Source: a virus
Taxonomy: Duplodnaviria; Heunggongvirae; Uroviricota; Caudoviricetes
Length of the DNA stretch: 34,352 nt
Strand: one strand, 5' to 3'
Virus record (IMG/VR): IMGVR_UViG_2660238524_000004
Positions 3,619 to 27,650 of the stretch are shown in pieces. The notes under the pieces were generated by a model, which saw only the letters and a list, made by a program, of their open reading frames with translations, ran no database searches and was not told the DNA's origin. The translations under genes were made by a program, and so were the position numbers. Numbering within the stretch: the first letter of the stretch is position 1; the number at the start of each line of letters is the position of its first letter.

Positions 3619-5893
3619 AGCCTCAGGGCGTTTTGTCCCTCCGTCAGCATTTGCTGCAGGCACCGGTAAGGCGTTTACTGGTGCTTATGCATGGAACGCG
3701 CCACGCGAGGCTGTCGGGCGCGAAAGACCTCTTACACGTGACGAGATGCGTCAGGTGCAAGGTGTTTTATCCACGATTAACCGCCTGCCTTACTTTTTGC
3801 GCTCGCTGTTTACTTCACGCTATGACTACATCCGGCGCAATAAAAGCCCGGTGCACGGGTTTTATTTCCTCACATCCACTTTTCAGCGTCGTTTATGGCC
3901 GCGCATTGAGCGTGTGAATCAGCGCCATGAAATGAACACCGACGCGTCGTTGCTGTTTCTGGCAGAGCGTGACCACTATGCGCGCCTGCCGGGAATGAAT
4001 GACAAGGAGCTGAAAAAGTTTGCTGCCCGTATCTCATCGCAGCTTTTCATGATGTATGAGGAACTCAGCGATGCCTGGGTGGATGCGCATGGCGAAAAAG
4101 AATCGCTGTTTACGGATGAGGCGCAGGCTCACCTCTATGGTCATGTTGCTGGCGCTGCACGTGCTTTCAATATTTCCCCGCTCTACTGGAAAAAATACCG
4201 TAAAGGGCAGATGACCACGAGGCAGGCATATTCTGCCATTGCCCGCCTGTTTAACGATGAGTGGTGGACTCATCAGCTTAAAGGCCAGCGTATGCGCTGG
4301 CATGAGGCGTTACTGATTGCTGTCGGGGAGGTGAATAAAGACCGTTCTCCTTATGCCAGTAAACATGCCATTCGTGATGTGCGTGCACGCCGCCAGGCAA
4401 ATCTGGAATTTCTTAAATCGTGTGACCTTGAAAACAGGGAAACCGGCGAGCGCATCGACCTTATCAGTAAGGTGATGGGCAGTATTTCTAATCCTGAAAT
4501 TCGCCGGATGGAGCTGATGAACACCATTGCCGGTATTGAGCGTTACGCCGCCGCAGAGGGTGATGTGGGGATGTTTATCACGCTGACCACGCCGTCAAAG
4601 TATCACCCGACACGTCAGGTCGGAAAAGGCGAAAGTAAAACCGTCCAGCTTAATCACGGCTGGAATGATGAGGCATTTAATCCAAAGGATGCGCAGCGTT
4701 ATCTCTGCCGTATCTGGAGCCTGATGCGCACGGCATTCAAGGATAATGATTTACAGGCCTACGGTTTGCGTGTTGTTGAACCACACCACGACGGAACGCC
4801 GCACTGGCATATGATGCTTTTTTGTAATCCACGCCAGCGTAACCAGATTATTGAAATCATGCGTCGCTATGCGCTCAAAGAGGATGGCGACGAAAGAGGA
4901 GCCGCGCGAAACCGTTTTCAGGCAAAACACCTTAACCGGGGCGGTGCTGCGGGATATATCGCGAAATACATCTCAAAAAACATCGACGGCTATGCACTGG
5001 ATGGTCAGCTCGATAATGATACCGGTAGGCCGCTGAAAGACACAGCTGCTGCTGTTACCGCATGGGCGTCAACGTGGCGCATTCCGCAATTTAAAACGGT
5101 TGGTCTGCCGACAATGGGGGCTTACCGTGAACTACGCAAATTGCCTCGCGGCGTCAGCATTGCTGATGAGTTTGACGAGCGCGTCGAGGCTGCACGCGCC
5201 GCTGCAGACAGTGGTGATTTTGCGTTGTATATCAGCGCGCAGGGCGGGGCAAATGTCCCGCGCGATTGCCAGACTGTCAGGGTCGCCCGTAGCCCGTCGG
5301 ATGACGTTAACGAGTACGAGGAAGAAGTCGAGAGAGTGGTCGGCATTTACGCGCCGCATCTCGGCGCGCGTCATATTCATATCACCAGAACGACGGACTG
5401 GCGCATTGTTCCGAAAGTGCCGGTCGTTGAGCCTTTGACTTTAAAAAGCGGCATCGCCGCGCCTCGGAGTCCTGTCAATAACTGTGGAAAGCTCACCGGT
5501 GGTGATACTTCGTTACCGGCTCCCACACCTTCTGAGCACGCCGCAGCCGTGCTTAATCTGGTTGATGACGGAGTTATTGAATGGAATGAACCGGAGGTCG
5601 TGAGGGCGCTCAGGGGCGCATTAAAACACGACCTGCGAACGCCAAACCGTCAGCAGAGAAACGGAAGCCCGTTAAAACTACATGAAATTGCACCATCGGC
5701 CAGACTGACCCGGTCGGAAAGAATGCAAATTACCCGTATCCGCGTTGACCTTGCTCAGAACTGTATCAGGCCGCAGCGATGGGAGTTTGAGGCGCTGGCG
5801 CGTGGCGCGACCGTAAATTATGACGGAAAAAAATTCACGTATCCGGTCGCTGATGAGTGGCCGGGATTCTCAACAGTAATGGAGTGGAAATGA
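3608..5893 (+). CDS. A: Rolling-circle replication initiator endonuclease, P2 gpA (about 761 aa)
   Basis: ORF track gives 3566..5893; N-terminus from the ATG at 3608 (MAVKASGRFVPPSAF...) and most of the protein match my recollection of P2 A; HUH-type motif region (PHWHMMLF) and paired active-site tyrosines (YIAKYISK) present. Confidence 0.9.
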   Translation: MAVKASGRFVPPSAFAAGTGKAFTGAYAWNAPREAVGRERPLTRDEMRQVQGVLSTINRLPYFLRSLFTSRYDYIRRNKSPVHGFYFLTSTFQRRLWPRIERVNQRHEMNTDASLLFLAERDHYARLPGMNDKELKKFAARISSQLFMMYEELSDAWVDAHGEKESLFTDEAQAHLYGHVAGAARAFNISPLYWKKYRKGQMTTRQAYSAIARLFNDEWWTHQLKGQRMRWHEALLIAVGEVNKDRSPYASKHAIRDVRARRQANLEFLKSCDLENRETGERIDLISKVMGSISNPEIRRMELMNTIAGIERYAAAEGDVGMFITLTTPSKYHPTRQVGKGESKTVQLNHGWNDEAFNPKDAQRYLCRIWSLMRTAFKDNDLQAYGLRVVEPHHDGTPHWHMMLFCNPRQRNQIIEIMRRYALKEDGDERGAARNRFQAKHLNRGGAAGYIAKYISKNIDGYALDGQLDNDTGRPLKDTAAAVTAWASTWRIPQFKTVGLPTMGAYRELRKLPRGVSIADEFDERVEAARAAADSGDFALYISAQGGANVPRDCQTVRVARSPSDDVNEYEEEVERVVGIYAPHLGARHIHITRTTDWRIVPKVPVVEPLTLKSGIAAPRSPVNNCGKLTGGDTSLPAPTPSEHAAAVLNLVDDGVIEWNEPEVVRALRGALKHDLRTPNRQQRNGSPLKLHEIAPSARLTRSERMQITRIRVDLAQNCIRPQRWEFEALARGATVNYDGKKFTYPVADEWPGFSTVMEWK

Positions 5894-6345: not shown

Positions 6346-6551
6346 TGCACAGAATACCAGGCGAGATACCGCAACATAAAACTAAAAATATCAAGCTGAT
6401 GGCTATTGTTCACCGTCTACAGCAGATTATGGTTAACGAAAATCTGACGCCTGACGAGCTGGTCGGGTGTGCCGAAATAGTCCGGGATAATTACGGGCGG
6501 TTTAACCATATCGGTCAATCCAGAGTTATGCCACCACCACGCAGACGATAG
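6345..6551 (+). CDS. Small hypothetical protein (68 aa)
   Basis: ATG overlapping the orf91 stop (TAATG); no recognisable motif; could be spurious. Confidence 0.25.
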   Translation: MHRIPGEIPQHKTKNIKLMAIVHRLQQIMVNENLTPDELVGCAEIVRDNYGRFNHIGQSRVMPPPRRR

Positions 6552-6780
6552 AGAACGCCGCCAGTCGTGAAACTTGTTTTCAGGGCTGGCGGGGTTGAAC
6601 AACGAGCGAAGCGAGGCGTTAGTTGACAGTAATATTTTTACTGCGTTGGTGCTGGTTTTTGACGGTTGAAAGGAGTTAGCTCGGAGAGCTAAAGCTAACA
6701 ACTTACAAATATTCAAAAGTAAGCTTCCTGTTGCTAACATAAGGTCGATTTTTTATGTGGATGATGCAAAAAGGATAGCT

Positions 6781-7512
6781 ATGGATACTGTAATCGCTTT
6801 TCTATCACTCGCTTTTTTCGTTGCTTTTTTCATCGGGTTAATCAAACCATCACTGGTGCGGATGCCAAACCGTAAACGTGCAAGTGCGGTTTATCTCGGA
6901 GGAGGTTTTGTATTGAGCATAATTGGTTCAATACTCTATCCAACAGAAAAAAGCCAGCCAGTTGCTAAAACTGAAACATCAACCGTTGCAGAACACCAAG
7001 TCCAAAAAACATTCGAATATGGTGGAAAAACACTCAAGGAATATCGGAACGAGCCAAAGAAAACTCGACACGATATTGTAAATAGTTACATTGATTTTAA
7101 GGAAGTGCCAGTCACCGCATCAGATGCATTTTATGCCTGCATGAGTGAATATACTTTTACCAAAGATGATGAGTTGAAACTCGGTGATGTTCTTGGATGG
7201 TGCTTTAATGATTATGAAAAAGATCCGCAATCACTAAACAATAAAATCAACCTTGATACATTTCAGAGTAATTTTAGTGGTTGGGATGGTTCTTATCGAC
7301 CATTGGAAAAGTTAATTAAAGAGAATATGAACGATGATTCATCTTATAAACATGTGTCAACAGTGTATCATTTAATCCTGAATAAAGACCCTCACGCCAT
7401 TGTGAAAACCACATTTCGCGGTACTAATGCCTATGGTGGTGTCGTGAAGCAAACAATAGCAGCGCGTGTTAATGTGAAAACGGGTGAAATAGTTTCGATA
7501 CTAAATAATTGA
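6781..7512 (+). CDS. Cargo gene 1 at the tin/old-equivalent locus: predicted 2-TM membrane protein with about 180-aa soluble C-terminal domain, unknown function
   Basis: ORF track 6757..7512 (GTG); ATG at 6781 has AGGA 5 nt upstream and is preferred; two hydrophobic segments (VIAFLSLAFFVAFFIGLI and AVYLGGGFVLSIIGSILY); AT-rich relative to backbone; sits where P2 carries tin. Confidence 0.65.
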   Translation: MDTVIAFLSLAFFVAFFIGLIKPSLVRMPNRKRASAVYLGGGFVLSIIGSILYPTEKSQPVAKTETSTVAEHQVQKTFEYGGKTLKEYRNEPKKTRHDIVNSYIDFKEVPVTASDAFYACMSEYTFTKDDELKLGDVLGWCFNDYEKDPQSLNNKINLDTFQSNFSGWDGSYRPLEKLIKENMNDDSSYKHVSTVYHLILNKDPHAIVKTTFRGTNAYGGVVKQTIAARVNVKTGEIVSILNN

Positions 7513-7716
7513 TGGTGATGCCACCGATACTGAAGTTTGATATTGTGTCGGTGGCATTGAAAGATGATCTTAAAGCATGTCTATTTTTTTGTTTTACATG
7601 ATTTTTTTTTGATGTGTTGTGCGTTGTTTTGTTTGTAATTAGAGTGCTTGATGATTTAAATTTCGTTTAAATGTTGTGTGAAAATATTGTGATTTTCTAT
7701 ATCAAGGATTTGTTTC

Positions 7717-8415
7717 ATGAAGTATTGTGGGATAGCTTTAATAATATGTCTTTGCTTGTTTATGTTCGCATTTGGTTTTGTGTTGGGTGGAGTTCAATGG
7801 GCATGGGGCGAGAGTGAAAATAATAGCAAGGTCGCATTTTGGACAATGCTAGGAGGGTGGGTGTCAGGATTGGCTACTCTCGCGGCTGTGGGGGTTTCAT
7901 TATTTACAAGTTATTATGCGATGATTTCAGGCAAAGAGAAAGTTGACGTTGTTTTTGCGCCTATATATACGACCTCTACGGCAAAAAAAGCAGATAAGCT
8001 TTCATTGCAAGATTTGGCTAATATCAAAGTGACAAATTTACACGGTGTGAAGTGTACTATTGTTAATGTTTATATGAAGTTTAGTGATGTTAAGGAACCA
8101 TTAAAGATTAATAACCTTAAACAGGGAGGTAAGCCAATACCTTATACGCTATGTAATATAAGCGATATGTGGGAGTTTGCATTTGGGATGGAGTCAAACC
8201 CTAGATTGAGATTTCTATTGTCAGGGTTGAAATATGAAGGTCGACCATCCTTTAAAAAAGGGCATTTCATCATTGAAACAGCAATGAAACAATACAAGTT
8301 AAAGATGCGGAAAGACTTTCTCTCAATATTACAGAGTGAGTATCAAAGCATAGAGGAAGAATCTAAACGTAACTCAGTTAAATCAGGGTGGTCACGGTAT
8401 AAAAAACTGAATTAA
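7717..8415 (+). CDS. Cargo gene 2 at the tin/old-equivalent locus: predicted 2-TM membrane protein (232 aa) with about 150-aa soluble C-terminal domain, unknown function
   Basis: Clean ORF with its own AT-rich upstream region; hydrophobic segments IALIICLCLFMFAFGFVLGGV and WTMLGGWVSGLATLAAVGVSLF; strongly AT-rich codon usage; occupies the position of P2 old but is far too short to be an Old ATPase-nuclease (586 aa). Confidence 0.7.
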   Translation: MKYCGIALIICLCLFMFAFGFVLGGVQWAWGESENNSKVAFWTMLGGWVSGLATLAAVGVSLFTSYYAMISGKEKVDVVFAPIYTTSTAKKADKLSLQDLANIKVTNLHGVKCTIVNVYMKFSDVKEPLKINNLKQGGKPIPYTLCNISDMWEFAFGMESNPRLRFLLSGLKYEGRPSFKKGHFIIETAMKQYKLKMRKDFLSILQSEYQSIEEESKRNSVKSGWSRYKKLN

Positions 8416-8557
8416 TTACCTAATCAGTTATCATGCATACACAATATGCATGGATTTGCATGCGCAAGCAGCATTCACATTGGTTGTTTTAGTTCAGGAC
8501 TGGTGCTGTTTCGACGTGTTCATGCAACTGCATTAAAACCGACCCATGAAGCGGGCG

Positions 8558-23049: not shown

Positions 23050-23417
23050 TGGCTTTCAGAATGAGTGCAGAAGCACAAACTATCCGCGTTTTCAATTTAC
23101 TTGATGGAACCAATGAATTTATTGGCGAAAGTGATGCATATATTCCACCGTATACTGGCCTGCCTGCAAACAGTACAGATATTGCACCACCTGATATTCC
23201 TGCTGGTTATGCAGCCGTTTTCAATGCAGATGAAATGAAATGGGAGTTGATGGAAGATCATCGCGGAAAGACTGTCTACGAAACGAAAACGGGAGCAGCC
23301 ATTTATATTTCTGAACTTGGCGCATTACCTCCAGACGTGACAGCCATTTCCCCGGATGGGGATTATCAGAAATGGAACGGAAATGCGTGGGTGAATGATG
23401 AGTGCGTATTACCGTGA
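23049..23417 (+). pseudogene. tfa: Tail fibre assembly chaperone (lambda Tfa-like), N-terminal fragment truncated by IS insertion; last 15 nt, including the stop, come from the IS end
   Basis: N-terminus [51 protein letters not shown] closely resembles lambda Tfa; native reading frame ends at 23402 where the IS begins. Confidence 0.8.
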
Positions 23418-23487
23418 AGGAGATCGGTGAGTAACATCGATGGAGATCGGTTCGTGTCACTTTCACAGAACCGTTTTTAAATTACCT

Positions 23488-24237
23488 TCACTGATCTCCT
23501 TCGGTCAACGGAGATTGTATTTTCCGCATTGATTCTCCTTTAAGTTCGATCTTGATACTGCCATGAACCAGTCGATCTAGGATGGCATCCGCATGTGTGG
23601 AGTCTCCGATCATTTTGTACCAGTTTTCCACCGGCAACTGGCTCACTACGATGATTGAGCCTCGTTGGTACATCAGATCCACTATTTCCAGCAGGTCGCT
23701 ACGCTGTTCTGATGAGAGAGGTTCCAGCCCCCAGTCATCCAGAAGCAGCAGATCGCTATTATTCAGCCTGGTCAAAAGTTTGCTGTATCTTCCATCAGCA
23801 TGCCCCTGATAGCACTGTTCCATCAGCGCTTTAAGGCGATAATAGTAGACCTTGTATCCCTGTCGGCAGGCATTATGACCAAGTGCACATGCCAGGAACG
23901 TTTTACCGCTGCCGGTGGCCCCGGTCAGTAAAATATTTTGTTTCAGGGTTAACCAGTTTCCCTGACTGAGTGAACGGATGAGGGCCCTGTCCAGCCCTCT
24001 ATTGTTACGATAATCCAGCTTTGATAACTCAGCATTAAGTCTGAACCGTGCATGTTTGATCAGACGCTCTGCCTTCCTGTTTTCACGGCAGGTTAGTTCT
24101 TCTGCTGTCAGTAATGACAGGCGTTCTTCGAAGCCCAGCTCCTGGTATGTGCCCGGTTGAGCAAGTTGCTTTTTAAGCGCATCACGGAAGCCGGTGAGTT
24201 TAAGTGCGGTCAGTTGTTCGTAAAGATGATTCATCAT
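23488..24237 (-). CDS. istB: IS21-family helper ATPase IstB (249 aa)
   Basis: Walker A motif GATGSGKT and DnaA/DnaC-like AAA+ region; immediately downstream of istA. Confidence 0.9.
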   Translation of the reverse strand: MMNHLYEQLTALKLTGFRDALKKQLAQPGTYQELGFEERLSLLTAEELTCRENRKAERLIKHARFRLNAELSKLDYRNNRGLDRALIRSLSQGNWLTLKQNILLTGATGSGKTFLACALGHNACRQGYKVYYYRLKALMEQCYQGHADGRYSKLLTRLNNSDLLLLDDWGLEPLSSEQRSDLLEIVDLMYQRGSIIVVSQLPVENWYKMIGDSTHADAILDRLVHGSIKIELKGESMRKIQSPLTEGDQ

Positions 24238-24248
24238 TGGATCCCGTA

Positions 24249-25790
24249 TCAGTGGTAATACTCACTGCCGCGTACGTTTTCGTGTTCCATCGTGGATAAC
24301 AGATCTGGTTTTGGATCCTGAACAGGTTGTTTATCCAGACCTTTTTCCAGGATCGATTTAATACCTGACAGACGCCATACCTTTGTTTTCAGAGCTCTTG
24401 CACATGCTGCATTAAGTCTGGCTTTACTGTATTTTTTATGAAGGTTCAGGAGTCCAAGGCAGAAGCGATAGCTTTGTTCCGGATGTGGACGAGAGTTCAG
24501 TATATGAAGCACATAACTATGAGTTTCACTGCCTATGTGCCCCGCCCATTCCAGAAGACGCTCTGGCGTCCAGGTGGCATGCTGTCGATGAGCTTCAGGC
24601 ATGTGCTCGTTGCGGGTACTGTAGCCATAAGTACGCTTGCGCGGGTGCACAGCAACCTCCTGCCCCTGATTGAAGAGTCTTACCAGTTCTCCGGAGATCC
24701 ATGCTTCCAGTTGCTGGCCTAACAGCGAACATGGAACCGAGTAGTAATGTTTGTCGATTTCCACGTGGTAATCGGCATGAACTCTGACTTTCTTCACCAG
24801 GGTGTAACTGTAACTGGCTTCAGGAAGAGGCTTCAGTGCGGGTTTATCAAGCTGGATGAAGAGTTCTGCACGTGAATAACCCAACTTCTGCATTATTTTG
24901 TTATTCAGTCTTTCCAGCAACTCCCGAATGCGCTGATTAAGCGATGCAAGGCTGTAGAAGATCTCATGCCTGATTCGGGCCATGATCCAGCGTTCAACAA
25001 CCTGAACGCCAACTTCAGCTTTGGCTTTATCTTTCGGTTTACGTGGCCGCGCAGGCAAAACTGCGACATTATAATGCTCAAGCATCTGCTGGTAGGTAGG
25101 GTTAACGTCAGGATCATACTTACATGCCCTGGATGTGGCGCTTTTCAGATTGTCCGGAACAACAAGTTCAGGAACGCCACCCAACCACTGGAAGCAGCGA
25201 ACATGACTCATCACCCAGTCTTCAAGCTGCTGAGACCAGGTGGCCTCTGCCCATGTGTAACTTGATGCCCCGAGAACAGCTACGATGACCTGAGCAGTTC
25301 TTATTTCTCCGGTCTCAGGGTCGGTAACGCCAACGGTAGGTCCACAGTAATCAACGAAAAGTTTTTCGCCAGCTTTATGTACCTGACGCATTGATGGTGA
25401 AGTGGTTTTGAGCCATTCACGGTACATCCGGCAGTAATGGTTATAGCTGTAAAAACCGCCTGGATTACGCTCACAGTATTCTTCCCAGAGTAGCTGCAGC
25501 GTCACGCATTTATTACGCAGTTCCCGGTGTACTGTAGCCCAGTCAGGCAGAGAGTGCTTCTTCATCTTAACCTGGGTCTGAAGGAACGCATGTTTTAGTT
25601 TTGTATCATCCCATCCTGTAGGTAAGGGCCACTGCTTTATGCCAAGTTGAGCCGCCCGATTAGCATATCTGGATACAACGGAAGGGGAGATTGCAAGACT
25701 ACGACCAATTTGTCGATGGCTGAGTCCAACACCGTATTTAAGCCTAAGAATTTCTTTAAGTTTTCTCATAGAAATTGGAACTGTTGGCAT
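24249..25790 (-). CDS. istA: IS21-family transposase IstA (513 aa)
   Basis: N-terminal HTH, central DDE-type integrase core; followed by istB with a short spacer as in IS21-family elements. Confidence 0.9.
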   Translation of the reverse strand: MPTVPISMRKLKEILRLKYGVGLSHRQIGRSLAISPSVVSRYANRAAQLGIKQWPLPTGWDDTKLKHAFLQTQVKMKKHSLPDWATVHRELRNKCVTLQLLWEEYCERNPGGFYSYNHYCRMYREWLKTTSPSMRQVHKAGEKLFVDYCGPTVGVTDPETGEIRTAQVIVAVLGASSYTWAEATWSQQLEDWVMSHVRCFQWLGGVPELVVPDNLKSATSRACKYDPDVNPTYQQMLEHYNVAVLPARPRKPKDKAKAEVGVQVVERWIMARIRHEIFYSLASLNQRIRELLERLNNKIMQKLGYSRAELFIQLDKPALKPLPEASYSYTLVKKVRVHADYHVEIDKHYYSVPCSLLGQQLEAWISGELVRLFNQGQEVAVHPRKRTYGYSTRNEHMPEAHRQHATWTPERLLEWAGHIGSETHSYVLHILNSRPHPEQSYRFCLGLLNLHKKYSKARLNAACARALKTKVWRLSGIKSILEKGLDKQPVQDPKPDLLSTMEHENVRGSEYYH

Positions 25791-25983
25791 AGGTATCCTT
25801 TACCGGAATGGCAAAAGATACAGATCAACACACCTGTGAAGTTCCAATAACATTGATGGAGATCACTGAATAACAAAATGAGTCAAAAGTGATCTCCATC
25901 GATGTTATTCAGCGATCTGTTCAAATGTTATTACCCGATCTCGATGGAAGTTATTGAGTGATCTCCTTTCATGAAAATACGCA

Positions 25984-26213
25984 ATGAGAATGCAGAGCGT
26001 GATGCACTTGTCAGAGCGGCGGAGTCTCAGAAGAAAGAGCAGATTGCATATGCCGGTGAAATTATTGCCACGCTGCAGGATGCTGTCGATTTAGATATGG
26101 CTACCGAGGAAGAAAAGTTAAGTCTGACACACTGGAAAAAATACCGTGTGCTACTGAATCGCGTTCAGCCGGAAGATGCTCCGGATATAGAATGGCCGGA
26201 AATGCCGCGATAA
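25984..26213 (+). pseudogene. tfa: Tail fibre assembly chaperone (lambda Tfa-like), C-terminal fragment downstream of the IS
   Basis: Frame continuing from the target duplication encodes ...NAERDALVRAAESQKKEQIAYAGEIIATLQDAVDLDMATEEEKLSLTHWKKYRVLLNRVQPEDAPDIEWPEMPR, resembling the lambda Tfa C-terminus; joining 23049-23402 to 25989-26213 restores a 192-aa ORF. Confidence 0.8.
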
Positions 26214-26469
26214 ATTGTATTAGCTCGGATGTGAGTTTACACATCTATAGCACAGAGTAAAACCTAATCTGGCTGTCCGCTCTGTGCTAGGAGCGGACAT
26301 TACCAAGTAACATGCCTTAATCAAAAGGAAATGGTTAATATATGCCATCATTGTTTGAAAAATACGCAGTCATATATTGCTATGAACATTGTTGGTGCAT
26401 TAACTTGCTTAAGAAACTACAATTAAGCATCATAAAATACTCTTATGACTTTTAAGGCTCTACCGTATC

Positions 26470-26877
26470 ATGGCTAAGCGGATTCCTGGTGTTAGTAAAG
26501 AATGGTCTAACTATCTCCTTTGTTTATTATTACATATGTCTTTACCTCTCTTACCTTTGGGGTTCGAGACACTTGTGCGTTCCGATCACTTGCCATCAAT
26601 ACAAACATTAAACATTACAGCGGCGTTTTATGCGATCTCGATAGGGCTTTCTTCTAAGAACGTTGCTATGTTTGGTTTGGGTATATTCGTGAGCATTTGT
26701 TTCTCTGTTGTATTTGGGATTGTTTCTTCAAATCCTAATTCTGATCCTAATCTTAATTTTAATGATAACTTGTATTTTTATTCTCCAATTGCGTGTATTG
26801 TTGCTATATTTGTTATACATGCATGTGAACGATATAACAGGCATGTTGCTGATTGTACACCATTTTTTGAGTTTTAA
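26470..26877 (+). CDS. Cargo gene at the Z/fun-equivalent locus: small multi-pass membrane protein (up to 135 aa), unknown function
   Basis: AT-rich ORF with several hydrophobic segments (LLCLLLHMSLPLLPLGF, AAFYAISIGL, FGLGIFVSICFSVVFGIV, IACIVAIFVI); no clear RBS at the first ATG so the start is uncertain. Confidence 0.45.
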   Translation: MAKRIPGVSKEWSNYLLCLLLHMSLPLLPLGFETLVRSDHLPSIQTLNITAAFYAISIGLSSKNVAMFGLGIFVSICFSVVFGIVSSNPNSDPNLNFNDNLYFYSPIACIVAIFVIHACERYNRHVADCTPFFEF

Positions 26878-26886
26878 GGGGGTGCT

Positions 26887-27378
26887 ATGATTGATACAAT
26901 TATCCCAGTAATACTATCAATTCTCCCGGCAATACTATCTATATTTAGCTTAGTAGCTGTTTCTATAGGTGCATTAGTATCTATCAGGTCTGTTAAAAAA
27001 AGACGTGAAATAGAAGTTCAGCTTTTTAATGAGATAATAAATCAACAAATTAAACAAACTAAAAGCAACCGTAAAAAGGATCTTGAAAATAGTGTTAATG
27101 AAATAGAAAATGAACTCAAGAGAAGAGTTGATATTTTGAATAAAATGCAAAAAGATCTAGAAGCAGTTTCAGAGAACAAATACTATTTTGATAAAGCAAA
27201 ATATCTTCGAAATGTCAAGTATGGAGAGTATTTATTAGAGATAAATGAAGCTGTGAATAATATTGATAATAAAAACAAACACTTACTAAATAACGCTCTT
27301 AATCAAAGCTCTGAGATTGGAAAAGTAAGATATCTTGGAAGAATAACAAAGGAAGCACTGGAAAAAACAGTAGGCTGA
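26887..27378 (+). CDS. Cargo gene at the Z/fun-equivalent locus: single-TM protein with long K/E/N-rich coiled-coil-like domain (163 aa), unknown function
   Basis: RBS AAGGGGG 6 nt upstream of the ATG; N-terminal hydrophobic segment IIPVILSILPAILSIFSLVAVSIGALV then charged helical region; very AT-rich. Confidence 0.65.
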   Translation: MIDTIIPVILSILPAILSIFSLVAVSIGALVSIRSVKKRREIEVQLFNEIINQQIKQTKSNRKKDLENSVNEIENELKRRVDILNKMQKDLEAVSENKYYFDKAKYLRNVKYGEYLLEINEAVNNIDNKNKHLLNNALNQSSEIGKVRYLGRITKEALEKTVG

Positions 27379-27620
27379 TCATTTTTTCCGCTCGTAATAG
27401 ATAAACTCAAAGGTTCTTTTTGAGAGCCTTTGAGTTTCAATCTTACCAATATTACTCACCATTTCTTTAGCAGCAATTTGGGGACTATAACTTCTACTTC
27501 TTGCTGTGAGTTCAACCGATGGATACAACACATTGGCTAAAACGCCCTGTGGGTGATTCATAGTCTAGCGTTTGGACTCCGTAAATTCACAGTTGGAAAC
27601 TGAGCGAGTACAAATCAAGG

Positions 27621-27650
27621 CCGGCGGGCTGATTGCCCGCCTTTTCTTTA
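27621..27650 (+). terminator. Rho-independent terminator-like hairpin between cargo locus 2 and the FI late promoter
   Basis: GGCGGGC-tgatt-GCCCGCC stem-loop followed by TTTTCTTT. Confidence 0.5.

Follow-up and report, generated by a model that had tools for sequence, protein, structure and literature searches.

What does a P2-like prophage carry between its tail genes tfa and FI, how might that cargo have arrived, and what could it do for the lysogen? These questions are raised by a 34,352-nucleotide stretch of viral DNA (IMG/VR record IMGVR_UViG_2660238524_000004; hereafter, the window), which corresponds to a P2-like prophage. Between the stop codon of tfa (26211–26213) and the start of FI (27750), where P2 has fun, the window holds an AT-rich island with two open reading frames (ORFs), hereafter ORF1 (26470–26877, 135 amino acids) and ORF2 (26887–27378, 163 amino acids). 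The island is identified with high confidence as one copy of a non-autonomous inverted-repeat cassette of the Z-region type, the cargo of which is a two-gene operon for inner-membrane proteins. On the basis of genomic context we propose tentatively, giving the idea a little less than an even chance, that the pair acts at the membrane to protect the lysogen from other phages.

The island and its operon

The GC content in 300-nucleotide bins across 26401–27600 is 0.377, 0.317, 0.263 and 0.383, against approximately 0.55 in the flanks and 0.54–0.58 in the downstream bins, and at third codon positions (GC3) it is 0.28 in ORF1 and 0.20 in ORF2, versus 0.66 in FI. Both genes lie on the forward strand, 9 nucleotides apart, with the ribosome-binding site AGGGGG preceding ORF2. 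An earlier reading of this DNA by a model, made from the sequence alone (hereafter, the original prediction), had described a strongly AT-rich insert that follows the stop of tfa and precedes the late promoter of FI, with two co-oriented ORFs of deviant codon usage and a good ribosome-binding site for the second, and each of these points is borne out. The island is identical to that of Peduovirus P24A7b (LR595887), in which the arrangement at the tfa–FI site is also the same as in the window. This phage gave the only match covering more than 6% of the island query among 50,697 phage records, and the whole island was found in 2 of 5,426 complete Escherichia coli genomes.

A consensus scan picked out a promoter-like site (TTAAGA-18-TAAAAT; 26409–26438, forward strand) approximately 30 nucleotides upstream of ORF1. 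This putative promoter lies within a 170-nucleotide non-coding leader that is conserved in the homologous loci L036, L040, L042 and L003. Downstream of ORF2, an inverted repeat (I3; CTCAAAGGTTCT / AGAGCCTTTGAG, then TTTCA; 27403–27440, forward strand) could form a terminator-like hairpin belonging to the module itself. This AT-rich hairpin, which a scan for GC-rich terminators did not pick up, is conserved in the cassette copies L036 and L040. The terminator scan did find a GC-rich hairpin at 27623–27641, followed by a T tract (27623–27650 in all, forward strand), upstream of the FI promoter. The original prediction had taken this hairpin to mark the end of the island. The structure and its T tract are indeed present, but the sequence from 27566 to 27650 occurs at 85–92% identity in approximately 290 E. 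coli genomes without the ORF1 and ORF2 cargo, and the hairpin (27623–27650) is found also in several P2-like phages that have neither gene. As the hairpin and the 50 nucleotides preceding it are common to cargo-free genomes, they belong to the P2 backbone and not to the island.

Both genes are real and, as judged from the ratio of nonsynonymous to synonymous substitution rates (dN/dS, 0.03–0.38 overall), under purifying selection, with values of 0.03–0.20 for ORF1 and 0.16–0.38 for ORF2. The alternative that the 135-residue ORF is non-coding, which the original prediction had named as one that would refute it, is excluded. In the GenBank record of P24A7b, ORF1 has been shortened to 69 residues (LR595887, 4455–4664); the comparative data back the 135-residue form, and the shorter call is a mis-annotation. 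The same record includes a 60-residue minus-strand ORF (5166–5348; 27379–27561 in the window) in the right arm of the cassette, which is non-coding; the comparative data give this ORF no support. It was rejected as a gene, as were small ORFs upstream of the pair in the window (26331–26455), since the cassette copies do not share the start codons or reading frames concerned.

A mobile inverted-repeat cassette

Nucleotide conservation with close homologues from other contexts begins exactly at 26216 and reaches about 230 nucleotides beyond ORF2, and the limits of the insert are the ends of inverted repeats, at 26216 and approximately 27612. These ends are imperfect inverted repeats of approximately 85 nucleotides, composed of a terminal block (TGTATTAGCTCAGA..CTGACA) and an inner block (AATCTGACAGnCnGCT..AGCGGA). 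In the window, the left repeat (26216–26300) is complete, with a terminal block beginning TGTATTAGCTCGGA... and an inner block, AATCTGGCTGTCCGCTCTGTGCTAGGAGCGGA, at 26266–26297. The right repeat (27560–27612, ending ...CAGTTGGAAACTGAGCGAGTACA), as delimited by alignment of all ends, consists of the terminal block only, without the inner block that other copies have, and corresponds to a stretch common to P2-like prophages with other cargo. The left repeat aligns with both cassette ends in the E. coli loci L036 and L040, as well as with the ends of cassettes that carry other cargo in P2-like phages. Two-block repeats of this kind bound the gene pair in the window and in E. coli loci L036–L041. 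The window cassette is not bounded by attC sites.

In E. coli loci L036–L039, a 1331-bp unit lies between 7-bp direct repeats (TTTTATC). The copy in L037 (5347–6677) is inserted approximately 55 nucleotides upstream of qatA, and in E. coli 300709 (L051:1560–1830) the same site is uninterrupted and has a single TTTTATC. Such a duplication, together with an empty site, is what transposition by a trans-acting enzyme leaves behind, and the Z-region repeats accordingly behave like the termini of a transposable element mobilised in trans. No transposase was found inside any cassette copy examined, and no autonomous element with the cassette repeats was found among loci with near-identical ends. Around the window copy there is no clear target duplication. 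An insertion sequence of the IS21 family that interrupts tfa in the window was compared with the cassette for common ends; its ends (TGCGTATTACC...) and its 5-bp duplication are different.

At the P2 position the same repeats enclose a variety of other cargo: a NUDIX and a phosphatase gene in P24C9, a gene for a 183-residue protein in phage 569R9, one for a 359-residue protein in E. coli strain 5-1, and fun in P2 itself. The identification of the island as foreign cargo at the Z/fun site, as the original prediction had it, is upheld. Homologous repeats are annotated as the "left/right inverted repeat" of a "Z-region" in GenBank entries AJ512679–AJ512685 (including AJ512681 and AJ512683). They are presumably those that Nilsson, Karlsson and Haggard-Ljungquist are said to have described in 2004. 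Sequence resembling the left repeat is present in 1,457 of the 5,426 E. coli genomes, usually once per genome, and occurs also in Stx and Klebsiella phages. In an integrative and conjugative element (ICE) of Pectobacterium polaris (L048:6750–10768), the same repeats enclose approximately 4 kb, in which the ORF1–ORF2 pair is accompanied by genes for proteins of 331 and 345 residues without Pfam matches.

Neither the hotspot nor its repeats are new, and defence candidates are to be expected among the cargo of P2 hotspots. To our knowledge, the evidence for transposition of a Z-region cassette with a 7-bp duplication is new. Behaving as the ends of a transposable cargo carrier, the Z-region repeats offer a testable mechanism for the swapping of content at the P2 hotspot. 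The original prediction had recognised neither the mobile, repeat-bounded cassette nor the wide spread of the gene pair.

Two membrane proteins that occur as a pair

ORF1 is predicted from its translation and an AlphaFold2 model (pLDDT 88.6) to be an inner-membrane protein with four transmembrane (TM) helices, spanning residues 10–36, 44–61, 65–87 and 99–127, in agreement with the several hydrophobic helices originally described. The positive-inside rule indicates an N-in/C-in topology in which both termini and the turn at residues 62–64 are cytoplasmic. In the alignment, residues H22, P26, L27, P29 and E33 of helix 1 are invariant, as are Y54, I58 and S62 at the cytoplasmic turn, and G83. The cytoplasmic end of helix 4 contributes a further six invariant positions (H117, E120, R121, Y122, N123 and H125), which form the motif H117-xx-E-R-Y-N-x-H125. 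Relative to its nearest homologues, ORF1 has a six-residue insert (NSDPNL, 26740–26760) in a periplasmic loop, a variant that is present on dozens of contigs.

The ORF1 family is large. A word-indexed search returned 58 homologues, and a profile search of 1.84 billion representatives returned 661 clusters at 50% identity with E ≤ 1e-3, or 461 with E ≤ 1e-10. No domain fusions were seen, the best 150 relatives all being stand-alone proteins of 97–223 residues. An identical ORF1 is found in Escherichia ruysiae (L010).

ORF2 is predicted to be bitopic, anchored by a single TM helix at its N-terminus and with a helical domain in the cytoplasm. The hydrophobic N-terminus is followed by the sequence RSVKKRRE, from which the remainder of the protein is taken to be cytoplasmic. 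The AlphaFold2 model is all-helical and of moderate confidence (pLDDT 73.6), and the region after the TM helix is rich in lysine, glutamate and asparagine. The TM segment and the K/E/N-rich helical region thus agree with the original description. The coiled coil that it proposed is not established; the monomer model is a helical bundle. Alignments identify R39 and E43 as invariant, together with a C-terminal motif, Q140-x-S142-xx-G145-xxx-Y149. The TM helix of the window protein (26887–26990) contains a tandem duplication of seven residues (PVILSIL/PAILSIF) in comparison with its nearest homologues, and this form too is found on dozens of contigs.

As a single query ORF2 recovers only 13 relatives, all enterobacterial. 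The gene directly downstream of distant ORF1 homologues nevertheless shares the ORF2 design, in which an N-terminal TM helix leads into a basic juxtamembrane stretch, followed by a helical linker that varies in length and by a conserved motif at the C-terminus. A profile built from such ORF2-type partners recovers 36 proteins, many of them on contigs with ORF1 homologues. A scan of one genome per species yielded 26 loci with ORF1 homologues, in Gamma- and Betaproteobacteria, Gemmatimonadota, Dehalococcoidia, Stahlbacteria, Verrucomicrobia, Gemmataceae, Saprospiraceae and Prochloron, and the pair is present in at least eight phyla, Planctomycetes and Cyanobacteria included. Where the ORF1 homologue in these species representatives is complete, a gene of the ORF2 type abuts or overlaps the ORF1 stop in nearly every case. 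The canonical ORF2 motif is seen in approximately 18 of 22 loci, with a variant in two Acinetobacter loci; the two loci without it are from Saprospiraceae and Verrucomicrobia. All four viral contigs that were checked carry the pair.

In homologous pairs, the stop codon of the ORF1 gene and the start codon of the ORF2 gene frequently overlap, which suggests translational coupling. By the positive-inside rule, the conserved loops of ORF1 and the ORF2 domain are on the same, cytoplasmic, side of the membrane. Taken with the overlapping codons, this arrangement of conserved faces suggests that ORF1 and ORF2 form a complex.

Searches for known relatives

The original prediction recognised neither protein, and no described family was matched by either in Pfam, NCBIfam or PADLOC. 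In PADLOC-DB v2.0.0, ORF1 matched no model at E ≤ 1, and ORF2 gave only noise (DpdH, E 0.29; LeoBC, E 0.30). All Pfam matches for both proteins were below the gathering score, with no holin match among them, and NCBIfam returned nothing for either protein. Sequence profile searches of the PDB were empty for both, as were a Foldseek search of the PDB with ORF2 and a fold search of BFVD. Assignments of ORF1 as a MAPEG protein, a CPBP/Abi protease, a colicin immunity protein or an LrgA-type holin were considered and dropped for want of Pfam or fold support. Profile–profile comparison by hhalign gave a probability of 0.2% for ORF1 against lambda RexB and of 0.3% for ORF2 against lambda RexA. Against P2 Fun, with which the original prediction had proposed a comparison, it was 0.1% or lower for both proteins; no link of the pair to Fun or to T5 resistance was seen. 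No characterisation of the pair was found in the literature searched by accession, phage name and architecture. What is new in the cargo is a family that is undescribed, widespread, strictly paired and without fold relatives.

In the PHROGs, the only matches were of ORF1, over its full length, to a family of unknown function (PHROG 22626, phrog_22626; E 4e-68) and a sub-threshold one of ORF2 to a "hol-like" family (E 0.027). The latter, and the presence of small helical membrane proteins in a prophage, could conceivably indicate a holin/antiholin-like pair that times lysis in the life cycle of the prophage itself. We consider this very improbable: the pair is not part of the P2 lysis cassette but sits in a hotspot that is non-essential and where cargo varies between phages, most of its copies are not in phages, and no holin family was matched.

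Genomic neighbourhood and possible function

The tail-gene (Z/fun) locus of P2 is an experimentally validated defence hotspot. Three new defence systems were found at the P2 fun locus (Vassallo et al. 2022), and 16% of P2 defence systems have been assigned to a tail-gene hotspot that lies downstream of GpL (Moura de Sousa et al. 2026). Copies of the pair elsewhere also adjoin defence genes. In locus L040 it directly follows HamA-HamB (Hachiman), AbiGi and a resolvase. In E. coli it is beside QatABCD and CBASS in L037 and beside NERD-UvrD and T5orf172 in L038. It follows DUF4760 and Mrr in Klebsiella (L042), and an MmeI-family restriction-modification (RM) gene, a helicase and T5orf172 in a member of the Budviciaceae (L009). 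In Vibrio anguillarum (L012) the pair is a superintegron cassette with VCR-like attC repeats on both sides, and in Luteimonas (L005:1–16405) it is within a long run of small, co-oriented and mostly unannotated ORFs that looks like a chromosomal integron cassette array. In Morganella a lambdoid prophage carries it as a moron, placed between dam and the nin/Q region, and in Pectobacterium it lies in an ICE, adjoining type IV secretion genes.

The original prediction had suggested an abortive-infection or exclusion module. The contextual part of that suggestion is strengthened, because close homologues adjoin defence systems (Hachiman with AbiG, QatABCD with CBASS, Mrr, and MmeI-family RM with T5orf172) and homologues are also found as integron cassettes. 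Small defence systems abound in such cassettes (Darracq et al. 2024 preprint), and the Vibrio cassette homologue is for this reason counted in favour of defence. A link to defence proteins by homology or fold was, by contrast, not found.

If the pair is protective, its action might proceed as follows. The operon, which is self-contained in having its own promoter-like leader and terminator, would be expressed from the prophage in the lysogen. The two inner-membrane proteins would act together, possibly in physical contact. ORF2, which evolves faster, may be the sensor or regulator, and upon infection would release or activate ORF1. The more conserved ORF1 would then be the effector, either collapsing membrane integrity or potential (abortive infection) or blocking genome entry (exclusion). 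Both modes are suggested by analogy with RexAB-type systems.

Several observations weigh against a protective role. In the searches above, neither protein resembled a defence protein or a pore in sequence or in fold, and nothing in the pair is recognisable as a nuclease, an NTPase or another sensor domain. An arms race would predict a signal of positive selection in ORF2, and none was seen by segment, the fastest segment having a dN/dS of 0.65. The pair is rare in phages, with 6 positives among 2.9 million viral contigs searched for ORF1 and a single phage among the 50,697 records. Several copies are lone insertions, as in Aeromonas and on a metagenomic contig, where they lie among housekeeping genes. 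At 19 loci from distant phyla, approximately 7–9 of the 107 nearest neighbours match PADLOC models (type IV DinG, bSEFIR, type III RM, PDC-S11, PDC-S54 and mad3), and most of the others are housekeeping genes. Location in defence islands or hotspots is recurrent in Enterobacterales and weak in distant phyla.

This distribution bears on a different account, in which the pair is lysogenic-conversion cargo with a non-defence accessory function at the membrane, ORF1 being the working component and ORF2 a regulator or scaffold. Such a function might be ion, metal or proton handling, protection from envelope stress, or immunity to a membrane-targeting bacteriocin or contact-dependent toxin. The invariant histidines and glutamates in the membrane and at its edge would suit metal or proton binding, and the family is broad and old, with its 661 clusters in many phyla. 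Many copies are amid housekeeping genes and few are in phages, one E. coli copy is beside type VI secretion system genes, and Z-region cassettes also carry cargo that does not look defensive, such as the NUDIX and phosphatase genes. Yet no transporter, immunity or stress family was matched, no toxin or bacteriocin gene accompanies the pair, and in Enterobacterales the pairs are found repeatedly beside defence systems and in defence hotspots. On balance we regard this account, the main rival to a protective role, as rather unlikely.

The settings in which the pair is found (integron cassette, prophages, ICE and transposon-like cassette) are also the habitats of addiction modules, and a compact, self-promoted and translationally coupled two-gene unit with a faster-evolving partner, ORF2, would not be out of place among them. 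The pair might then be a membrane toxin and its antidote that stabilise the carrier elements, with ORF1 as toxin checked by ORF2, or the reverse, and with no dedicated sensing of phage. Both products, however, are integral membrane proteins of similar size, there are no features of a labile antitoxin and no DNA-binding autoregulator, and known toxin-antitoxin families are not resembled. An addiction role is for these reasons distinctly unlikely; it partly overlaps with defence, as addiction and abortive infection are not mutually exclusive.

A bolder version of the protective role is that the pair represents an undescribed and broad class of two-protein membrane machine, which senses phage attack at the inner membrane, aborts or excludes the infection in a manner that has nothing in common with RexAB, Kiwa or Zorya, and spreads through trans-mobilised inverted-repeat cassettes. 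Its hallmarks would be the invariant intramembrane His-Pro-Pro-Glu helix and the cytoplasmic H-xx-ERYN-x-H motif of ORF1, and the LxQxSxxGxxxY motif of the bitopic partner. We consider this version somewhat doubtful. Spread by such cassettes, if it occurs, would explain how the P2 Z/fun hotspot is refilled.

Should the pair prove to be anti-phage, it would be a compact membrane-acting system of approximately 300 residues in total, without relatives among known defence proteins, with a wide phyletic spread and with sharply defined invariant residues ready for mutagenesis. Through one module, three reservoirs of small defence genes (the hotspots of P2, the cassettes of integrons, and defence islands) are tied together. 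A pair without a defensive role would still define a large uncharacterised family of membrane proteins with an evident active-site-like motif.

Other features of the prophage

The IS21-family element within tfa occupies 23403–25983, with istA (24249–25790) and istB (23488–24237) both on the minus strand, and is flanked by a 5-bp target duplication, ATGAG, at 23398–23402 and 25984–25988. Because the element splits tfa, the ORF that runs to 26213 represents no more than the C-terminal part of that gene. In P24A7b tfa is intact, and the prophage copy in the window is therefore probably defective for tail-fibre assembly. Within the C-terminal part of tfa, 25985–26176 gave a sub-threshold match to the Rfam family IS009 (RF02111; 42.5 bits versus a gathering score of 117, E 5e-8), which probably reflects tfa-derived sequence in the Rfam seed and not an RNA gene.

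Another AT-rich island is present at 6400–8450 (GC 0.31–0.40), in the gpA–portal hotspot. It contains ORFs of 251 (6757–7512), 232 (7717–8415) and 107 residues (6417–6740, minus strand), none of which matches PADLOC or Pfam, and appears to be a further case of uncharacterised hotspot cargo.

Comparison with known systems

In proposed logic the pair is analogous to RexAB of lambda, likewise a two-gene module expressed from a prophage, with a small four-TM inner-membrane protein (RexB, 144 residues) and a division into sensor and membrane effector. In contrast to RexAB, with which there is no detectable homology, the window operon has the gene for the multi-pass protein first, and its partner is membrane-anchored and half the size of RexA. 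The gp30/gp31 systems of mycobacteriophages Butters and Sbash are reportedly also two-protein prophage defences in which a four-pass membrane protein acts with a partner; they are said to differ from the window pair in that the partner is cytoplasmic and the hosts are Actinobacteria. Kiwa (KwaA/KwaB) and other membrane-anchored systems in PADLOC similarly combine a small multi-pass membrane protein with a second protein, but their models were matched by neither ORF1 (at E ≤ 1) nor, beyond noise, ORF2.

Cassettes of the chromosomal integron of Vibrio cholerae include Sucellos (sclAB) and Brigantia, two anti-phage systems that are small and membrane-associated (Darracq et al. 2024 preprint); a homologue of the window pair is likewise a Vibrio integron cassette. 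By their descriptions, Sucellos is structurally RexAB-like and Brigantia is a single gene, so that neither fits a pair of one four-TM and one single-TM protein.

The Z-region cassettes of P2-like phages, including that with fun(Z), share with the window cassette the site between the tail-fibre assembly gene G and FI, the flanking repeats, and AT-rich foreign cargo with its own expression signals. The fun(Z) cargo is unrelated to the ORF1–ORF2 pair and, in comparison with these P2 cassettes, the window cassette with its cargo is found inserted also outside P2, with a 7-bp duplication.

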